Source of the DNA: a virus
Lineage: Duplodnaviria > Caudoviricetes
Reading direction: 5' to 3' (one strand)
IMG/VR virus record: IMGVR_UViG_3300031813_000006
Location: 1 to 64,000 of that record
DNA: 64,000 nt
Within the stretch, counting starts at the first letter, position 1. Every line of letters starts with the position of its first letter. The translations under genes were made by a program, and so were the position numbers. Positions 7,796-14,637 of the stretch are shown piece after piece. The notes under the pieces were generated by a model. The model saw only the letters and a program-made list of their open reading frames with translations, had not been told where the DNA came from and did no database searches.

Positions 7796-8869
7796 ATGGA
7801 TAAACAAGAGATACAACAATTAGCATTAAACTCTCTTCTTCCCCATAAGCGGGCAGGAGTTTGCATATCTATGGGAGTAGGAAAAACTCTATTAGGTTTA
7901 ATGCATATGGAAAAATTCTATACAGATTACTTAAAAGTTTTAGTAGTGGCGCCTAAACTTTCTGTATTTGAATCTTGGAAAGATGAAATAGTGAAATTTA
8001 AAAAAGACATTCTTCTTGATCATATTAATTTTACCACTTATCTATCTTTAAATAAAGAACCTCTTGATTATGATATTGTTTATCTTGATGAATCACACAA
8101 TATTAAAGAGAGTCATGAAGAATGGTTAAGTAATTATGATGGTAGGATTGTAGGTTTAACAGGAACTCCTTCTAGAGATTTTAAAAGATTAGAACTTGCT
8201 GATGAGTATTTCCCTACTTGTTACACTTATTTAATTGATGATGCTGTAGCAGACGGTCTTTTAAATGATTATAGAATCTTTGTTCATACATTGAAATTAG
8301 ATACCAATACCAATATTAGAAAAGAATCTAAAAATGGTAAAGTATGGTACACTTCTGAAAAAGCTGAATATGATTATTGGAATAGACAATTACTTAACGC
8401 ATCTAGTGGTAAACAATCTATGATTCTTAGAATTATGAGGATGAAAGCTTTACAGGGATTTCTCAGTAAAGAAAATTTAGCCATAGATTTAATGGAAGAT
8501 ACTCTGAATAAAGTGATAGTTTTTGCTAATACTATGGAACAAGCTGATAGAGTTTGTAAACATAGTGTTCATAGCGGGAATGAAAATTCTGAAGAAAATC
8601 TAAAAGCTTTCAAAGAAGGTAGTATAATGCAATTATCTGCAGTTCTTCAACTTAGTGAGGGAGTCAATATACCTAATTTAAAAGAAGGTATTATAATGCA
8701 CTCTTATGGTAATGAGAAGAAATTTGCTCAAAGATTAGGGCGTATTATGCGTTTGTTTCCTAATGAACTAGCTACCATTCATGTTTTATGCTATGAAAAT
8801 ACTGTAGATGAGGATTGGGTAAATAATTCTTTAGATGATTTTGACCCTAATAAGATTACATGGTTATAA
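7796..8869 (+). CDS. Superfamily 2 (DExH) helicase
   Basis: Walker A MGVGKT, DESH, GLTGT, LSEGVNIP, QRLGRIMR. Confidence 0.9.
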   Translation: MDKQEIQQLALNSLLPHKRAGVCISMGVGKTLLGLMHMEKFYTDYLKVLVVAPKLSVFESWKDEIVKFKKDILLDHINFTTYLSLNKEPLDYDIVYLDESHNIKESHEEWLSNYDGRIVGLTGTPSRDFKRLELADEYFPTCYTYLIDDAVADGLLNDYRIFVHTLKLDTNTNIRKESKNGKVWYTSEKAEYDYWNRQLLNASSGKQSMILRIMRMKALQGFLSKENLAIDLMEDTLNKVIVFANTMEQADRVCKHSVHSGNENSEENLKAFKEGSIMQLSAVLQLSEGVNIPNLKEGIIMHSYGNEKKFAQRLGRIMRLFPNELATIHVLCYENTVDEDWVNNSLDDFDPNKITWL

Positions 8870-9135
8870 TGAAAAATAAAGAAAAAACTCCTCTTGAGAC
8901 TTTAAGAAGATTGAAAATCAATTCTTATTTTAATATTGATAAAACTTATGTTTTAGAATATAAAAAAAAGATAATTATAGCCCCAAATCCTGATCATAAA
9001 TTAGGAACTAGGTTGTATAATCTTATAAAAAGGGAATTTAAAATAGATGAACCTCACCTAAAAAGGTATGATTTTAAAATAAATGGAACTTTGGGAAAAA
9101 GAGCTAAGAGAAAGACTTCAAAGACAAGTTTCTGA
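8860..9135 (+). CDS. Basic hypothetical protein
   Basis: 91 aa ORF. Confidence 0.5.
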   Translation: MVIMKNKEKTPLETLRRLKINSYFNIDKTYVLEYKKKIIIAPNPDHKLGTRLYNLIKREFKIDEPHLKRYDFKINGTLGKRAKRKTSKTSF

Positions 9136-9283
9136 CGGATTTCATAAGATTGGGTGCCCTCCTTGGACATCAATGACCGGAAAAGAAGGATATATTGATT
9201 ATATAGTTGAATTTCATAGGCAAATGAACAAAGTTTTAGAGAATTCAAATAAAAAAAGTAGTAAATTTAACCATGACTTTTGA
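9083..9283 (+). CDS. Hypothetical protein
   Basis: 66 aa ORF. Confidence 0.5.
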   Translation: MELWEKELRERLQRQVSDGFHKIGCPPWTSMTGKEGYIDYIVEFHRQMNKVLENSNKKSSKFNHDF

Positions 9284-9383
9284 TTCTGATACTTTTAAGT
9301 ATATGATGGTTATATTTGGTAGTTTTACCGTTTATGCCATTATTATATTTTTAAGAGATGAAATGAAGCATGGTCCAGATTAA
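9273..9383 (+). CDS. Small membrane peptide (36 aa, not in ORF track)
   Basis: MTFDSDTFKYMMVIFGSFTVYAIIIFLRDEMKHGPD fills the gap before clpS. Confidence 0.5.
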   Translation: MTFDSDTFKYMMVIFGSFTVYAIIIFLRDEMKHGPD

Positions 9384-9388
9384 AAAAT

Positions 9389-9658
9389 ATGGATCATAAA
9401 CTACAAAAACTGCTTGATGAGAGCTTAGTTTTGGAAAAAGAAGCTAAAATAACGCTTATCAATGATGAGGTCAATTCTTTTGACCACGTAATTAACTGTC
9501 TCATAAAGTATTGTAAGCATGAAAGAATTCAGGCTGAACAATGCGCTCAAATTGTACATAATAAAGGAGCTTATGCTGTAAAACAAGGTGATTATGATAA
9601 ATTATTACCTATTTACCATGCATTAATTGATAATGGCCTATTGGCTGAATTAGAATAA
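9389..9658 (+). CDS. clpS: ATP-dependent Clp protease adaptor ClpS (Bacteroidota type)
   Basis: ITLINDEVNSFDHVINCLIKYCKH..QAEQCAQIVHNKGAYAVK: ClpS N-degron pocket (ND..F..V) and VH..G motif. Confidence 0.88.
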   Translation: MDHKLQKLLDESLVLEKEAKITLINDEVNSFDHVINCLIKYCKHERIQAEQCAQIVHNKGAYAVKQGDYDKLLPIYHALIDNGLLAELE

Positions 9659-9674
9659 ACTCAAACTAAAATTT

Positions 9675-10781
9675 ATGGGAAGTAATATTAACTTCTCTCA
9701 GATGTTATATAAATATGACACTACTGGGAGAATAAGAGTTTTGCATGTATTTACTGAAGGAGATGTATTAATCCAGGAGTCTGGAGTATTAGATGGAAAT
9801 CTAGTTAAGCATGAAAAAGTATGTAAACCAAAGAATGTAGGTAAATCAAATGAAACTACAGGAGCTGAACAAGCTGTATTAGAAGCAAAATCAAAAGTAG
9901 CAGAAAAACTTACTACAGGTTATTTTGATTCTATAGAGAAATTAGATGATGAAGGAAATGATGTTGTACTTCCTATGCTGGCCCATGATTATCATAAGAT
10001 GACTCAAACTGTTGATTGGGAAAAACCAGTATATTCTCAACCTAAATTTGATGGTCAACGGTGCCTTATAGTTGTAAAAGAAGGTAATGTAACATTATTA
10101 TCCCGTCAAGGGAAAGTAATAGACACCATGGAACATATTAAAGCTGAGATTGAGTCTATGGTATCTTCTAAGACTAATTTAGTTTTAGATGGTGAATTAT
10201 ACGCGCATGGTCTTAGTTTTCAAGATAATATGCGTCTAATTAAGAAATATAGACAAGGAGAAAGTGAAAAAGTTTTATACAATGTCTATGACCTTGTAGA
10301 GAATCAACCTTATCACCTAAGATTTGAAAATATTGTAAAAATCCTTACAGGTAGGAAGTTTAACTACATTGTATTAGTTAAAACTACTCCTGTATCTTAC
10401 AATACTTTAAAACATATTCATGCTCAAAACCTATCTGAAGGGTATGAAGGAACCATGATCAGACATGGAAATAGTGGTTATGAAATAAATTCCCGTAGTA
10501 AATCTTTATTAAAATATAAGGATTTTATGGATATTGCGCTTCCTATAATTAATGTAATCCCTTCTGATGCGCGTCCAACTCAGGGTGTAATAGTTTGCAG
10601 GTTACCTAATGGTCAAGCAGTTAAAGCCAATTTAAAGTTTTCACATGCTGAAAGAGAAGAAATTCTTAAAAATAAAGCTGATTATATTGGAAAAATTGCA
10701 GAACTTAGATACTTTGAAACAACAGATGATGGAAGTCTTAGGTTCCCGGTCTGCGTTGGTTTTAGGCTAACTGGAGATTAA
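9675..10781 (+). CDS. lig: ATP-dependent DNA ligase
   Basis: PMLA, QPKFDGQR (adenylated Lys), LDGELY, EGTMIR, LLKYK, LRFP. Confidence 0.93.
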   Translation: MGSNINFSQMLYKYDTTGRIRVLHVFTEGDVLIQESGVLDGNLVKHEKVCKPKNVGKSNETTGAEQAVLEAKSKVAEKLTTGYFDSIEKLDDEGNDVVLPMLAHDYHKMTQTVDWEKPVYSQPKFDGQRCLIVVKEGNVTLLSRQGKVIDTMEHIKAEIESMVSSKTNLVLDGELYAHGLSFQDNMRLIKKYRQGESEKVLYNVYDLVENQPYHLRFENIVKILTGRKFNYIVLVKTTPVSYNTLKHIHAQNLSEGYEGTMIRHGNSGYEINSRSKSLLKYKDFMDIALPIINVIPSDARPTQGVIVCRLPNGQAVKANLKFSHAEREEILKNKADYIGKIAELRYFETTDDGSLRFPVCVGFRLTGD

Positions 10782-10795
10782 CATATACAGGAAGG

Positions 10796-10827
10796 TTTGG
10801 TAATATTAAAAATTAATGCTATTTTTG
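10796..10827 (+). promoter_or_regulatory. Bacteroidota primary-sigma promoter for the LAGLIDADG gene
   Basis: TTTG (10796-99), 20 nt spacer, TATTTTTG (10820-27). Confidence 0.7.
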
Positions 10828-10844
10828 TATAAAAATAATATAAA

Positions 10845-11615
10845 ATGATACAATATTTAGCGGGAATATTTGATTCTGAAGGTTATGTAAGAATTAGAAA
10901 AATAACTTCAAAGACTACTAATAAAGTAAGTTATATTTCAGAAATAAGAATTTATATGTGTAATAAAGAAATTGTAGAACAATTTTCTAAAATATACAAT
11001 CTTAAAGTTTATACCGGAGATAGAGGTAAATATAGAAAAATAAGTTATTGTGTAATATTTAATAATAAAACATTAAATAATTGTTCATTTCTTACTGATT
11101 TATTACCTTATGTTAATGAAAAAAGACTTCAACTACAATGTGTTTTTGATTTATTAAATAATATAAAACCAAAAGAAGAATGCTATCAAGATTATTTAAT
11201 TTATAAAACTAAATTCGATCATCCTGTTATAAATATACCATCTTATGAATATTTAGCAGGTATAATTGATGGTGATGGTTGGTTTAGTATGTTTAAATCT
11301 GCAATTGCAGGTCATCCTTCAATGTATAATAAATACTCTATAGGTCTTCAACAAAGATATAGACCTATGATAGAATTTATGAGTAATTTTGGAGGATCAA
11401 CCGTTCATAAATGTAAAGTATATGATTATCAAAGTCACATACAAACTTATTCATGGCAATGTACAACAGCTTTGATATTACCTTTTATAGAAAAAATAGC
11501 TCCTTTTTTAATTGAAAAGAAAGAAAAAGCATATTTATTTATAGATTATATTAAAAAACATGAAGAATTTAAAATATTTGCAGATGAAACATTATTAAAA
11601 TATAAACATTTTTAG
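10845..11615 (+). CDS. Free-standing double-motif LAGLIDADG homing endonuclease
   Basis: YLAGIFDSEG and YLAGIIDGDG; no intron core or intein ends seen. Confidence 0.9.
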   Translation: MIQYLAGIFDSEGYVRIRKITSKTTNKVSYISEIRIYMCNKEIVEQFSKIYNLKVYTGDRGKYRKISYCVIFNNKTLNNCSFLTDLLPYVNEKRLQLQCVFDLLNNIKPKEECYQDYLIYKTKFDHPVINIPSYEYLAGIIDGDGWFSMFKSAIAGHPSMYNKYSIGLQQRYRPMIEFMSNFGGSTVHKCKVYDYQSHIQTYSWQCTTALILPFIEKIAPFLIEKKEKAYLFIDYIKKHEEFKIFADETLLKYKHF

Positions 11616-11645
11616 AAATGATCTCTAATGATTAAATGATATACA

Positions 11646-11948
11646 ATGGCACAAACAGCATTATTAATTAAAAATAGAAAAGTAGTTACAAAAAGTCATT
11701 ATGAAGGTGATAAATTAATGGCATTAGTAACTAATGCTGATGATAATTTTTCTATGATTAATGATAATCAAGCTTTAGCATTTGAAGTTGAACAGGGAGA
11801 TGAAGCTGACTTTCATACAGGGTTAAGAAAACTGGCAGATGCTGAAAATCAATTTGTTAGACAATATTCTACAAATCCTGAATGGAATCCTGAAAATCAA
11901 CCAAAACCTTTAAGTAATGAAGACAGAACCCCCGTACAAGGCTGTTAA
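11646..11948 (+). CDS. Hypothetical protein
   Basis: 100 aa ORF followed by terminator. Confidence 0.75.
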   Translation: MAQTALLIKNRKVVTKSHYEGDKLMALVTNADDNFSMINDNQALAFEVEQGDEADFHTGLRKLADAENQFVRQYSTNPEWNPENQPKPLSNEDRTPVQGC

Positions 11949-11970
11949 TAGTCCTACTGGAGATGGAAAT

Positions 11971-12007
11971 GTACTCTATGGCATAGAAAGCCATGGAGTA
12001 CTTTTTT
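11971..12007 (+). terminator. Intrinsic terminator
   Basis: GTACTCTATGGC-ATAGAAA-GCCATGGAGTAC + TTTTTT. Confidence 0.85.
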
Positions 12008-12043
12008 GTAAATTTACAATAGAACAGGATAGAGATTATATAC

Positions 12044-12051
12044 TATCTTTG
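12044..12051 (+). promoter_or_regulatory. Probable -7 promoter element for tmRNA
   Basis: TATCTTTG (TAnnTTTG) about 35 nt upstream of the tmRNA 5' end; no clear -33 box. Confidence 0.5.
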
Positions 12052-12084
12052 TTGAATGAAAAATTAAAAGAATAGCATACATAT

Positions 12085-12461
12085 GGGGTAGCCAGGCGTT
12101 TGACAGGAACTGTATATTAAAGAGTAAGCACGTATGACTAGCATTGGAAGTCATTAAAAAGCTCTATGTAAACTTGAAATGACAACTTTATTGTTGAAAA
12201 CCGTCAAGCTAGCATCTTAGATGCAGCTGGCAAATGCGCTATTTCTGCACTTGTTGCAGGTGTAGCAATTCAGGAAGAGGAATTGGCTGTAGCCTAAATC
12301 TCAACAAGTAACTCTGACTTATCTGAGTGCAAAGGATTTTATACTTTCCTTGAAAGATCTAATAAAAAGTATATCATTTTGTAAGTTTAGAAAAACTTAA
12401 TAAACGTGTAGAAGGTTTTATTATAGGTTTTTGGACCGGGGTTCAATTCCCCGCTACTCCA
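12085..12461 (+). ncRNA. ssrA: tmRNA (SsrA)
   Basis: 5' GGGGTAG pairs with 3' CTACTCC-A including the G3.U Ala identity pair; TTTGAC after the 5' stem; T-arm CGGGG-TTCAATT-CCCCG; internal tag ORF 12181-12297 ending LAVA-stop; CCA not encoded. Confidence 0.93.
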
Positions 12462-12466
12462 CTCTT

Positions 12467-12516
12467 GCAAAGAGAATATAGGAACATGATTGGTTCAAAT
12501 CCAATCTCTTTGCCCA
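12467..12516 (+). ncRNA. tRNA-like minihelix (acceptor stem + T-arm + CCA, no D or anticodon arms)
   Basis: G-CAAAGAG / 14 nt / ATTGG-TTCAAAT-CCAAT / CTCTTTG-C-CCA. Confidence 0.65.
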
Positions 12517-12532
12517 ACTAAATTAAATTAAT

Positions 12533-12748
12533 ATGAATAAAATAATAGCGTTAATCAAAAACAATCTAGCATTTACTGTTTATTTTATAGTATTTCTAAT
12601 CATTGTAGTAGGGATTATAATTAATCTCAAAGATTTCTTTTCACAACCAGTTCTTGTAATTATAGGAATGTTTGGCATTTTAGTAGGTACTTTCTACTTT
12701 ATGTATGTTAATTTCTTTAATCAAAATCCAAATGGGGGCCAAAATTAG
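12533..12748 (+). CDS. Small two-TM membrane protein
   Basis: Two hydrophobic helices. Confidence 0.7.
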   Translation: MNKIIALIKNNLAFTVYFIVFLIIVVGIIINLKDFFSQPVLVIIGMFGILVGTFYFMYVNFFNQNPNGGQN

Positions 12749-13118
12749 TATCATGTTTATGATTGCAGGTTTTGCTAAAGCAATAATGGATACTTTACAG
12801 TTTCATTATTCTACCTCAATCTTTTCTAATTTTAAATCTCAGTTTTGGGATCCATCTGTATCTTGGCAGAATAAGTATTCTAATTTAGATACTTTGACCA
12901 CTAAGAAATTGTTTTGGAATATTCCTTATCCAGTATTTTTAACTGATGCGTGGCATTTATTCCAATTTATTTTCCTTAATTCTATATTTTTGGGTATTTT
13001 TATTCTTCTTTTTGTACAGATTCAATCTATACAATGGATAATCATAACTAGTATTGCGGAAAGGATTGTATTTGGATTAAGTTTTTGGGCAGGTTATAAT
13101 ATTCTTTTAAAGAAATAG
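12732..13118 (+). CDS. Membrane protein
   Basis: AIMDTLQFHY..FWDP..SWQNKY..TDAWHLF plus TM helices. Confidence 0.75.
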   Translation: MGAKISIMFMIAGFAKAIMDTLQFHYSTSIFSNFKSQFWDPSVSWQNKYSNLDTLTTKKLFWNIPYPVFLTDAWHLFQFIFLNSIFLGIFILLFVQIQSIQWIIITSIAERIVFGLSFWAGYNILLKK

Positions 13119-13121
13119 TTT

Positions 13122-13298
13122 GCTGAAACTTTAAATCAGCTGGTGGAGATCACAGAATTCTGTTGATCCTTTATATGTGGTAAAAGGGGAACGGGAGGTG
13201 GAATCCAAAAGCCCTGTAGGTGTTAGCCAAGGCTATCTTAGGTGGACTTTAAATGGAAAACTGAAACTGCGTGTTAAACAGTCCTACTACCACATATA
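13122..13298 (+). ncRNA. Candidate structured ncRNA(s), family unknown
   Basis: GC-richer non-coding stretch with two hairpins (13122-13140, 13148-13168) and a multibranch domain closed by TATATGTGGTA/TACCACATATA (13172-13182/13288-13298). Confidence 0.55.
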
Positions 13299-13305
13299 TA
13301 AAATA

Positions 13306-13339
13306 GACCCGGGAAAAGTTAGACATTCCCGGGTTTTTT
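13306..13339 (+). terminator. Intrinsic terminator
   Basis: ACCCGGGAA..TTCCCGGGT + T-run. Confidence 0.8.
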
Positions 13340-13355
13340 ATCTAATTAATTGATT

Positions 13356-13811
13356 ATGAAAGTAAATTATTTTGGTGCACCAGGTTTAGATAAATACAAA
13401 CTCAAAGATTATAGGTATTCTTTAGAACAGATTCTTGAAAATGTTAGTCAACATACTAATATTAAGAAGGAAGATATTCTTAAAAGATGTAGAAAAGATA
13501 CTATTGTAGAAGCAAGGCAAATCTTTTGTTATATTAGTACGTGGCTTTTAGATAATCCATATAGTACAGTAAAAGTTGCTAAATTTTTAGGATTAACTCA
13601 TGGTACTGTAGTCCATAGTAGAAGAAACATTAGTAATATAATGTTAGTGGATAAAAAGTTTGCTCTTGAAATTAATACTCTTATTTTTAAAATGGGACTC
13701 AATCCTGAAAATAGAAATAGGTATATTGATTCAGAAGAATTTAGAGAAATACAAAGTTTTCATCAAAAATTAACAAATAATGCAGCCGCTAAATCAAAAA
13801 GACATAAGTGA
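13356..13811 (+). CDS. Stand-alone DnaA C-terminal (domain IV) HTH protein
   Basis: EQILENVSQHTNIKKEDIL..RKDTIVEARQIFCYI..VAKFLGLTHGTVVHS..I matches the Bac_DnaA_C pattern. Confidence 0.8.
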   Translation: MKVNYFGAPGLDKYKLKDYRYSLEQILENVSQHTNIKKEDILKRCRKDTIVEARQIFCYISTWLLDNPYSTVKVAKFLGLTHGTVVHSRRNISNIMLVDKKFALEINTLIFKMGLNPENRNRYIDSEEFREIQSFHQKLTNNAAAKSKRHK

Positions 13812-13959
13812 TGGTCATTATTATACTCTTGAATTTAGAGTAAGTAAATTATCTAGAACACAATTAGATCAAATCATGGCTTTATTACAGGATAATAATC
13901 CTCAGTATAAAGAATTTAGTAAATTACCAATTAAACCTGAACAAAAAACAAGTATATGA
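13780..13959 (+). CDS. Hypothetical protein (59 aa, not in ORF track)
   Basis: MQPLNQKDISDGHYYTLEF...; ATGA coupling to next gene. Confidence 0.5.
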   Translation: MQPLNQKDISDGHYYTLEFRVSKLSRTQLDQIMALLQDNNPQYKEFSKLPIKPEQKTSI

Positions 13960-14255
13960 TTGAAAATAAAAGACATGAATTTGATGTAATTCTTCTAGAT
14001 TTGAAACAAACTAATCTTAATGAAACATTAGGTATTGATAAAGATGCTTTTCTTACTCATAAAGTAATGATTGATTTAAATTCAGTAGATAGTTATAGAG
14101 CAGAAAGCAATGATCAAAATAAAAATGAAGTTGATGGTAGTGCAACAGTAGTGTTTACTAAATCAAATAATCTATTTTTAATTGATTACCCTTATGAAAA
14201 ATTCAAACAATTAATGGGTGATTCAAATATTAAATCAGTTACTAAATCTGTTTAA
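13956..14255 (+). CDS. Hypothetical protein
   Basis: 99 aa ORF. Confidence 0.7.
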   Translation: MIENKRHEFDVILLDLKQTNLNETLGIDKDAFLTHKVMIDLNSVDSYRAESNDQNKNEVDGSATVVFTKSNNLFLIDYPYEKFKQLMGDSNIKSVTKSV

Positions 14256-14256
14256 A

Positions 14257-14637
14257 ATGTTTCAGCCAATTACTGTTAAATATGTAAAATTCAATGATAA
14301 ATTGGTTCCAGCTACATCAACGGATAAAATCAATGAAAGCCTATTTATCAATACTGTAAAAGATGGTGATAAAGTAGAGGTTACTTATGAAATTCAAAAT
14401 GATAATCATTCTGAAGGTCAACTTAAGATGGTACATGCCATTATAAGAGAGTTATCTCTTGAATTAGGATATGAATTTAAAATTATGAAAGAGATGGTTA
14501 AGAAAAGAGCCGGCTTACAGATTAAAGAGAATAAATTCAAATCTTTTGGAAAATGTACCAAAGAAGAATTATCATTAGCTATTCAATCAGCATTAGAAAT
14601 TCAAAATTTTACTAAAGCTAATCATGAAGAATATTAA
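14257..14637 (+). CDS. NinB/Orf-like recombination protein (tentative)
   Basis: HSEGQLKMVHAIIRELS..ELGY..KSFGKCTKEEL pattern. Confidence 0.5.
   Translation: MFQPITVKYVKFNDKLVPATSTDKINESLFINTVKDGDKVEVTYEIQNDNHSEGQLKMVHAIIRELSLELGYEFKIMKEMVKKRAGLQIKENKFKSFGKCTKEELSLAIQSALEIQNFTKANHEEY

Follow-up and report, generated by a model that had tools for sequence, protein, structure and literature searches.

A tRNA-like minihelix behind the tmRNA of a lake phage and its possible role in RNA processing

Minihelices made of an acceptor stem and a T arm are familiar chiefly as substrates in laboratory work and as proposed ancestors of tRNA. In bacterial pre-tRNA-His the cut by RNase P leaves G-1 paired to C73, and in the mascRNA/menRNA family (RF01684) tRNA-like modules direct cuts by RNase P and RNase Z at transcript junctions. 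The t-elements of plant mitochondria are likewise tRNA-like modules that steer RNase P and RNase Z cuts at the junctions of transcripts (PMC1920247). Synthetic acceptor/T-stem-loop substrates of RNase P are those of McClain, Guerrier-Takada and Altman (1987, as cited in PMC11143913), and the enzyme cuts such model hairpins at the canonical site (PMC11143913). RNase P also acts on pre-tmRNA and on dimeric phage pre-tRNAs whose members are closely spaced; in those of phage T4 the members lie less than 5 nt apart, and RNase P prefers a CCA on the downstream one (PMC11143913). According to the summary of the minihelix-His and microhelix-His work of Francklyn and Schimmel in PMC9976931, minihelices of 13 bp and microhelices of 8 bp are efficient substrates of HisRS when they bear G-1:C73. 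E. coli HisRS charges irregular tRNAs that have G-1 but a non-His anticodon, and these are not used in translation (PMC5389517).

Here we describe a 50-nt element with the shape of a tRNA top half, read from the sequence directly behind the tmRNA of a lake phage. The phage genome is a 123,597-bp IMG/VR virus record rated 100% complete, and its first 64 kb (64,000 nt, AT-rich with a G+C content of about 30%) form the stretch that was analysed, termed here the window. A full-text literature search found no published account of natural anticodon-less minihelices in phage genomes, and the element is a variant of tRNA-like processing elements and mimics already known. Like the synthetic substrates of RNase P and HisRS, it combines a 13-bp coaxial helix of acceptor and T stems with a T loop, G-1:C73 and, in the window allele, CCA; unlike the laboratory minihelices, it is genome-encoded and conserved, carries a 14-nt bulge between its helices and belongs to a putative phage operon. 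With t-elements and mascRNA it shares a non-decoding tRNA-like fold placed exactly where a stable RNA gives way to the following part of the transcript; there the predicted cut by RNase P would at once form the 3′ side of the RNA upstream. It differs from these in being a bacteriophage top half without a cloverleaf; the tmRNA upstream would still need trimming of 5 nt and addition of CCA, and a sister cassette does without the minihelix. The RF01684 model found no match on the minihelix, its sole match (16.5 bits, E 1.9) falling on the T arm of the tmRNA (12437-12453).

The arrangement recalls the T4 tRNA-Pro/tRNA-Ser precursor (PMC11143913) and a tmRNA-led tRNA array of an IMG/VR phage (L178, see below), where two tRNA-type units lie on one strand 4-5 nt apart and the upstream unit has no CCA, except that the D and anticodon arms of the downstream unit are missing here, through loss or from the outset, so that it cannot decode. 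The irregular G-1 tRNAs (Mukai et al., PMC5389517) also join a G-1 acceptor end to the lack of a His anticodon; however, they are full cloverleaves encoded in tRNA polycistrons of Acidobacteria, whereas the minihelix is a 50-nt phage top half. In the tmRNA field the nearest phage precedent is the TLD-only, CDS-less tmRNA of mycobacteriophage DS6A (PMC4131195, PMC11915505), again a small tRNA-like phage RNA with neither anticodon nor tag and in a trans-translation context. The minihelix lacks its features, with A3:U70 or G3:C70 in place of G3:U70, no tmRNA-type sequence 5′ of the T arm and no coverage by the tmRNA model; a reading as a TLD-only sponge for SmpB was rejected for its wrong 3:70 pair and missing TLD sequence. 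A genome-encoded minihelix kept by selection would represent a present-day use of half-tRNAs, beside a tmRNA in a phage without ordinary tRNAs.

The minihelix and its transcription unit

The sequence-only reading of this DNA had placed, 5 nt past the tmRNA discriminator, a 7-bp acceptor stem without mismatch, a T loop of canonical sequence and an extra G-1:C73 pair, and all of these are seen in the sequence (Table 1). The 13 pairs are Watson-Crick throughout (13/13), and G-1:C73 together with the seven pairs that follow makes an acceptor-type stem of 8 bp. As in the top half of a tRNA, the 7-bp acceptor stem is stacked directly on a 5-bp T stem whose loop carries T54 T55 C56 R57 A58 and is closed by G53:C61, so that the T-loop hallmarks (G53, T54, T55, C56, A57, A58, C61) are complete. 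Of the identity elements of tRNA-His, G-1:C73 is encoded; the GUG anticodon is absent together with the anticodon arm. D and anticodon arms had been described as missing, and indeed no space is left for them because only 14 nt separate the acceptor strand from the T stem. Neither ARAGORN nor the Rfam tRNA model RF00005 (gathering score, E up to 10 for the region, and genome-wide) called a tRNA on the element. Its MFE fold (-14.2 kcal/mol, against -11.9 kcal/mol for the tRNA-type fold; z = -2.4) retains the acceptor stem, but some of the T arm is now paired with the linker; the T-arm reading thus rests on the canonical T-loop sequence and not on energy. On both strands of the whole 123.6-kb genome this is the sole T arm with an abutting perfect Watson-Crick acceptor stem of 7 bp and a linker of at most 30 nt, and no comparable element occurred in 60 Markov shuffles of the genome (0/60). 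The minihelix is not a product of chance.

Table 1. Features of the tmRNA-minihelix locus, with positions in the window
Feature	Position	Strand	Remarks
Intrinsic-terminator-like hairpin	11971..12007	+	12-bp stem + T run; pattern scan; upstream of tmRNA
Phage tmRNA, tag AAGKCAISALVAGVAIQEEELAVA	12085..12461	+	ARAGORN; Rfam RF00023, 65.8 bits
Spacer CTCTT	12462-12466	+	tmRNA discriminator to minihelix G-1; 5 nt (4 nt in L040)
Minihelix, whole	12467-12516	+	50 nt
G-1 and 5′ acceptor strand CAAAGAG	12467..12474	+	G-1 = 12467, strand 12468-12474
Linker AATATAGGAACATG	12475..12488	+	14 nt; same in all alleles
T arm, stem ATTGG/CCAAT and loop TTCAAAT	12489..12505	+	5-bp stem 12489-12493/12501-12505, loop 12494-12500
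3′ acceptor strand CTCTTTG, C73 and CCA	12506..12516	+	Strand 12506-12512, C73 = 12513, CCA 12514-12516
71-aa hydrophobic ORF	12533..12748	+	Begins 16 nt past minihelix
137-aa membrane-protein ORF	12705..13118	+	Family beside or inside tRNA arrays in many other phages
Intrinsic terminator CCCGGGAA...TTCCCGGG and six T	13308..13339	+	Read directly; missed by pattern scan

The tmRNA is the only tRNA-type gene that ARAGORN and Rfam find in the window, and the Rfam tRNA model finds no canonical tRNA in the whole genome. Its acceptor stem carries G3:U70, and it encodes no CCA, since the discriminator A12461 is followed by CTC; the alignment with the Rfam tmRNA model stops at 12464, short of the minihelix. 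Every gene from 7796 to 14637 lies on the plus strand. The terminator-like hairpin upstream of the tmRNA, which is kept in the diverged relative L040 with a compensatory change from T-A to C-G, is probably the 5′ border of the transcription unit, and the terminator behind the 137-aa ORF is likely its 3′ border. The pattern scan found no terminator among tmRNA, minihelix and the two downstream ORFs, and the 71-aa ORF is therefore probably co-transcribed with the minihelix; no promoter for the tmRNA-minihelix unit was identified. The simplest reading is one unit consisting of tmRNA, minihelix, 71-aa ORF, 137-aa ORF, an untranslated stretch and the terminator. The upstream hairpin falls within a called 52-aa ORF (11917-12075), so either the ORF may be spurious or the terminator is embedded in it. 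Further upstream, between the DNA ligase gene and the next ORF, lies a free-standing endonuclease gene (10845-11615) with two LAGLIDADG-type motifs, labelled HNH in PHROGs. It is found in the window and in L132 and is missing from the otherwise identical L031 and L125/L131, which marks a presence/absence polymorphism of a homing endonuclease.

Relatives, alleles and the tRNA slot

A scan of metagenomes returned a single match, an identical copy of the minihelix (L031). Informative relatives were reached through homologues of the 137-aa ORF and fall into three sets. The first consists of ten further metagenome contigs from several assemblies, identical to the window across 12040-12760. The second is a diverged lineage (L040/L041) in which the 137-aa protein is 58% identical and a tmRNA with the same tag is followed by the minihelix with three changes in 50 nt. 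Two of these, A3 to G and U70 to C, compensate each other and turn A3:U70 into G3:C70; the third turns CCA into CTA, so the encoded CCA that had been noted from the sequence is true of the window allele and not of the diverged one. The third set (L032-L035) is a sister cassette whose tmRNA, at the same locus, is a different one (tag AADEMRAAA) that encodes no CCA; the cassette lacks a minihelix, and a homologue of the 71-aa ORF starts about 30 nt past the tmRNA. Homologues of this ORF thus sit 3′ of the tmRNA both here and in L040. In L036-L039 neither tmRNA nor minihelix is present. In relatives found by way of the DNA ligase (about 50% identity), nothing of the block from the helicase gene to the gene at 14218 is present.

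One more sequence, L136, joins L040-type sequence (the 3′ part of the tmRNA and the 5′ strand of the minihelix) to window-type sequence from the linker onward. Its minihelix therefore has G3:U70, and the acceptor halves of its tmRNA come from different alleles and do not pair, for which reason L136 was excluded as independent evidence; it is probably a recombinant or an assembly chimera and not a third allele. G-1:C73 is present in the window, L040/L041 and L136 alike. The window has A at acceptor position 3 where the other three have G; the two solid alleles thus carry A:U and G:C as pair 3:70, and G:U occurs only in L136. A U stands just 5′ of G-1 in both alleles. In the alignment of the three rows all 39 pair cells hold standard pairs (39/39), a number of rows at which the shuffle control has no power. 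A search for covarying homologues had been proposed, and it was answered in part: the diverged lineage supplies one compensatory pair, and a search of 790 kb of related phage DNA with a covariance model built from the minihelix alleles found no further one. Exact-pattern scans of IMG/VR for the minihelix or the tmRNA ends gave no matches, and in BLAST against cultured phages the locus had no match and a 58-mer only generic T-arm matches.

Between the window and L040 the minihelix differs at 3 of 50 positions and its linker and T arm at none of 31, compared with 85/359 (23.7%) over all flanks; at the flank rate the binomial P is about 0.001 for the former and about 0.0002 for the latter. Counted separately, the differences are 8/39 in the 5′ and 11/47 in the 3′ tRNA-like part of the tmRNA, 3/16 in the spacer 3′ of the minihelix and 45/213 in the 71-aa ORF. 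In the initial reading the intact stems had been held to argue against simple decay, and this argument gained weight, as the short form is kept despite 24% divergence of the flanks, with a compensatory pair and with linker and T arm unchanged. The same reading would have yielded to a full-length tRNA with a recent deletion at this place in relatives, and no homologous one was found. The body of the tmRNA (291 nt, tag included), on the other hand, is identical at 290 of 291 positions between the window (12085-12461) and L040 (187-563), which shows recent recombination at the locus; as the locus is a mosaic, a short conversion tract could mimic conservation of the minihelix. The case for selection consists of two lineages and one covarying pair, since L136 is not counted as independent. 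We consider the minihelix real, tRNA-derived and probably maintained, and probably a working RNA because a diverged relative keeps it with a compensating pair change. As to the tmRNA itself, its 5′ and 3′ tRNA-like parts differ by 20-23% with matched compensatory changes in acceptor and T stems, a mosaic pattern that looks as if the tRNA-like domain had been exchanged between lineages.

We also examined 116 loci on viral contigs that match a generic 3′ end of tmRNA; 50 matches fall in tmRNAs called by ARAGORN, 48 of them with at least 150 nt downstream, and in none of the 48 does a minihelix follow. In the IMG/VR phage contig L178 (4738-5543), a tmRNA with the tag ANNEVRMAA heads a tRNA array, and 4 nt past its discriminator comes a tRNA-Gln, then tRNA-Trp and tRNA-Lys. 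The 137-aa family adjoins tRNA arrays or sits inside them in many IMG/VR contigs (L045-L124), and in L049, L066 and L071, for example, a tRNA-Ser lies upstream and a tRNA-Ala directly downstream of the family gene. Because a tRNA-Gln stands behind the tmRNA in L178 and the neighbourhood of the 137-aa gene holds tRNAs, the minihelix occupies the slot of a tRNA 3′ of the tmRNA and most likely descends from such a tRNA. A comparison with the 58 tRNAs of related arrays revealed no parent, with no likeness beyond the T-arm consensus, and none of 185,579 species genomes contains the 22-mer that spans T loop and 3′ strand.

Processing module and alternative readings

Our leading explanation, which we hold tentatively and at somewhat less than even chances, is that the minihelix is a tRNA-type processing module at the junction of tmRNA and mRNA. 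In form it agrees with a minihelix substrate of RNase P, having an acceptor/T-stem-loop stack, a single-stranded 5′ leader, a position at a transcript junction and an RCCA-like tail (CTA in L040). According to this explanation, a top-half gene made of acceptor stem, T arm and a D-loop-like 14-nt bulge would have been kept by selection in the tRNA slot; tmRNA and minihelix would be co-transcribed with the two downstream membrane-protein ORFs, and the pair would be treated like a dimeric phage tRNA precursor. Host RNase P would be predicted to cut between U12466 and G12467 in the manner of tRNA-His, retaining G-1 because it pairs with C73. The 3′ end of the minihelix would form at or after C73: in the window allele exonucleases would trim back to the encoded CCA, and in the CTA allele RNase Z would cut and CCA would be added. 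On the tmRNA side, the 5-nt trailer would be trimmed before addition of CCA, or alternatively RNase Z may cut first, past A12461. The expected products are a stable tmRNA, a CCA-ended minihelix of roughly 50 nt and an mRNA with a leader of 16-19 nt. The central GG of the linker could mimic G18-G19 of a D loop and so complete a tRNA elbow; the linker may otherwise bind a partner, and no target complementary to it was found in the window. An apparent likeness to the 5′ region of the tmRNA was discarded, as it does not covary in L040.

Several observations favour a processing module. The 5-nt gap to the tmRNA equals the spacing of tRNA arrays, as the 4 nt of L178 illustrate; terminators flank the unit and none separates the tmRNA from the ORFs; 13 perfect pairs with a canonical T loop are not expected by chance; few changes have accumulated in the minihelix relative to its flanks, pair 3:70 covaries and the U before G-1 is shared by both alleles; and the neighbourhood of the 137-aa gene in other phages holds true tRNAs. 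Against it stand the small number of independent alleles (two, with one covarying pair only), the mosaic locus where a conversion tract could look like conservation, an MFE fold that differs from the T-arm fold, and the invariant linker, which a pure signal for RNase P and RNase Z does not explain. From the sequence alone a processing signal, a decoy and a deleted remnant had been put forward, the first as a mascRNA-like signal that could free the 3′ end of the tmRNA. A need for such a signal is not supported, since the sister cassette with its CCA-less tmRNA and the 48 other viral-contig tmRNAs lack a minihelix; a processing role is thus dispensable, and the minihelix would be no more than an optional refinement. 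Should it serve as a processing signal, tRNA punctuation in the style of t-elements and mascRNA would extend to phage operons in which stable RNA and mRNA are combined. The natural CCA and CTA alleles offer a built-in test of post-transcriptional CCA addition.

A neutral origin is possible, though we regard it as doubtful. An internal deletion would have removed the D and anticodon arms from a tRNA of a tmRNA-led array and left a stump without function, which persists either because little time has passed since the deletion or through short gene-conversion tracts that make the copies alike. The phage has no canonical tRNA while relatives sharing the neighbouring gene family have arrays, and the slot holds a full tRNA in L178; the second tRNA-like gene of the genome (described below) has no proper anticodon arm either, the sister cassette lacks the minihelix, its encoded CCA is not conserved, and mosaic recombination at the locus agrees with conversion. 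A functionless stump is difficult to reconcile, however, with 3/50 differences against 24% in the immediate flanks on both sides, with the fact that the sole two stem changes compensate each other, and with an unpaired linker that does not vary, nor has a parent tRNA appeared in 790 kb of relatives, the 58 array tRNAs or the 185,579 species genomes.

Somewhat less probable, and in our view unlikely, is an RNA of tRNA-His type that acts in trans: with its 5′-phosphorylated G-1:C73 and CCA, the minihelix might be charged by HisRS, or bound uncharged, and act off the ribosome. It might titrate, as a decoy or sponge, a host factor that senses tRNA acceptor ends or tRNA charging, or it might donate an amino acid, roles we likewise consider improbable. 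Both alleles keep G-1:C73, HisRS is able to charge G-1:C73 minihelices (PMC9976931) and irregular G-1 tRNAs (PMC5389517), and the invariant linker suggests a sequence-specific partner. Yet the extra G:C pair may merely lengthen the stem, one allele ends in CTA instead of CCA, no candidate target is encoded nearby and the sister cassette has no minihelix. The phage was found to encode neither HisRS nor a CCA-adding enzyme, so host enzymes would have to act. Its most specific form, a natural minihelix-His matured by RNase P to a 50-nt RNA with G-1 retained and CCA kept or added, charged by host HisRS and soaking up, off the ribosome, a host defence or stress factor that senses acceptor ends or charging state, seems less likely again. 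Charging with histidine would make the element a new kind of tRNA mimic in the conflict between phage and host, and with a natural minihelix-His, if true, the synthetic minihelices that have long modelled primordial tRNA would for the first time have a functional counterpart in nature.

That the minihelix is no RNA gene at all is highly improbable. The 3′ ends of tRNA and tmRNA genes are common integration sites, and an attP-type core copied from a host tRNA end was considered and rejected: no match to PF00589 (tyrosine recombinase) or PF00239 (serine recombinase) was found in the genome and the 22-mer occurs in none of the 185,579 species genomes, both of which make an att-site copy unlikely, and an att core needs no 5′ strand. 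An 11-codon ORF starting with the ATG at 12486 was rejected too, for although both 3′-side substitutions of L040 are synonymous in its frame, its stop codon is not conserved and it leaves unexplained the canonical T loop, the 13 perfect pairs and the compensating change 5′ of the ATG.

Other reduced tRNA-like genes

The phage genome carries a second tRNA-shaped gene outside the window, at 115448-115551 on the plus strand (L140:649-752). It is 104 nt long, lies in an ORF-free gap and has a perfect 7-bp acceptor stem, a D arm of class-II type, a canonical T arm and an extra hairpin of 10 bp, without a proper anticodon stem-loop; ARAGORN and Rfam made no call on it. As the minihelix and this gene both have no anticodon stem-loop, the decoding arm is missing in both tRNA-shaped genes of a tRNA-less phage. 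No synteny was found between the gene at 115448 and its look-alike in the relative G002. In G002 a gene (L019:13270-13363) has a class-II-like tRNA shape with a long variable arm and the anticodon loop CGGTCTC, with G at position 33; it too was left uncalled by ARAGORN and the Rfam tRNA search. Also in G002, on the minus strand, a 96-nt match to the tmRNA model (L009:1501-1596, 17 bits) covers the 3′ part of a tmRNA only, with a AAGCATGTA motif, GGAC, a T arm and an acceptor strand followed by a terminator. It is possibly a tag-less mini-tmRNA like that of DS6A, or a remnant.

Two uncalled reduced tRNA-like elements lie in IMG/VR contigs with the 137-aa family (L071:838-901 and L076:1133-1184), each with a perfect acceptor stem, a T arm and a core of 21-33 nt with a small hairpin; they stand at unrelated loci and are not homologous to the minihelix. 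A 25-mer of the L040-type tmRNA 3′ end recurs exactly in a Ferruginibacter sp. MAG (L139:1-720), where about five permuted tRNA-like modules are arrayed in tandem, each flanked by GTGCCGTAG...ACTTCG and with T arm and 3′ strand preceding 5′ strand and D arm. The array gives a weak match to YrlA (Y RNA-like, 33.5 bits). The same 25-mer terminates a true tmRNA in a Bacteriovoracia MAG (L138), and the matches in the two MAGs hint at a host among the Bacteroidota.
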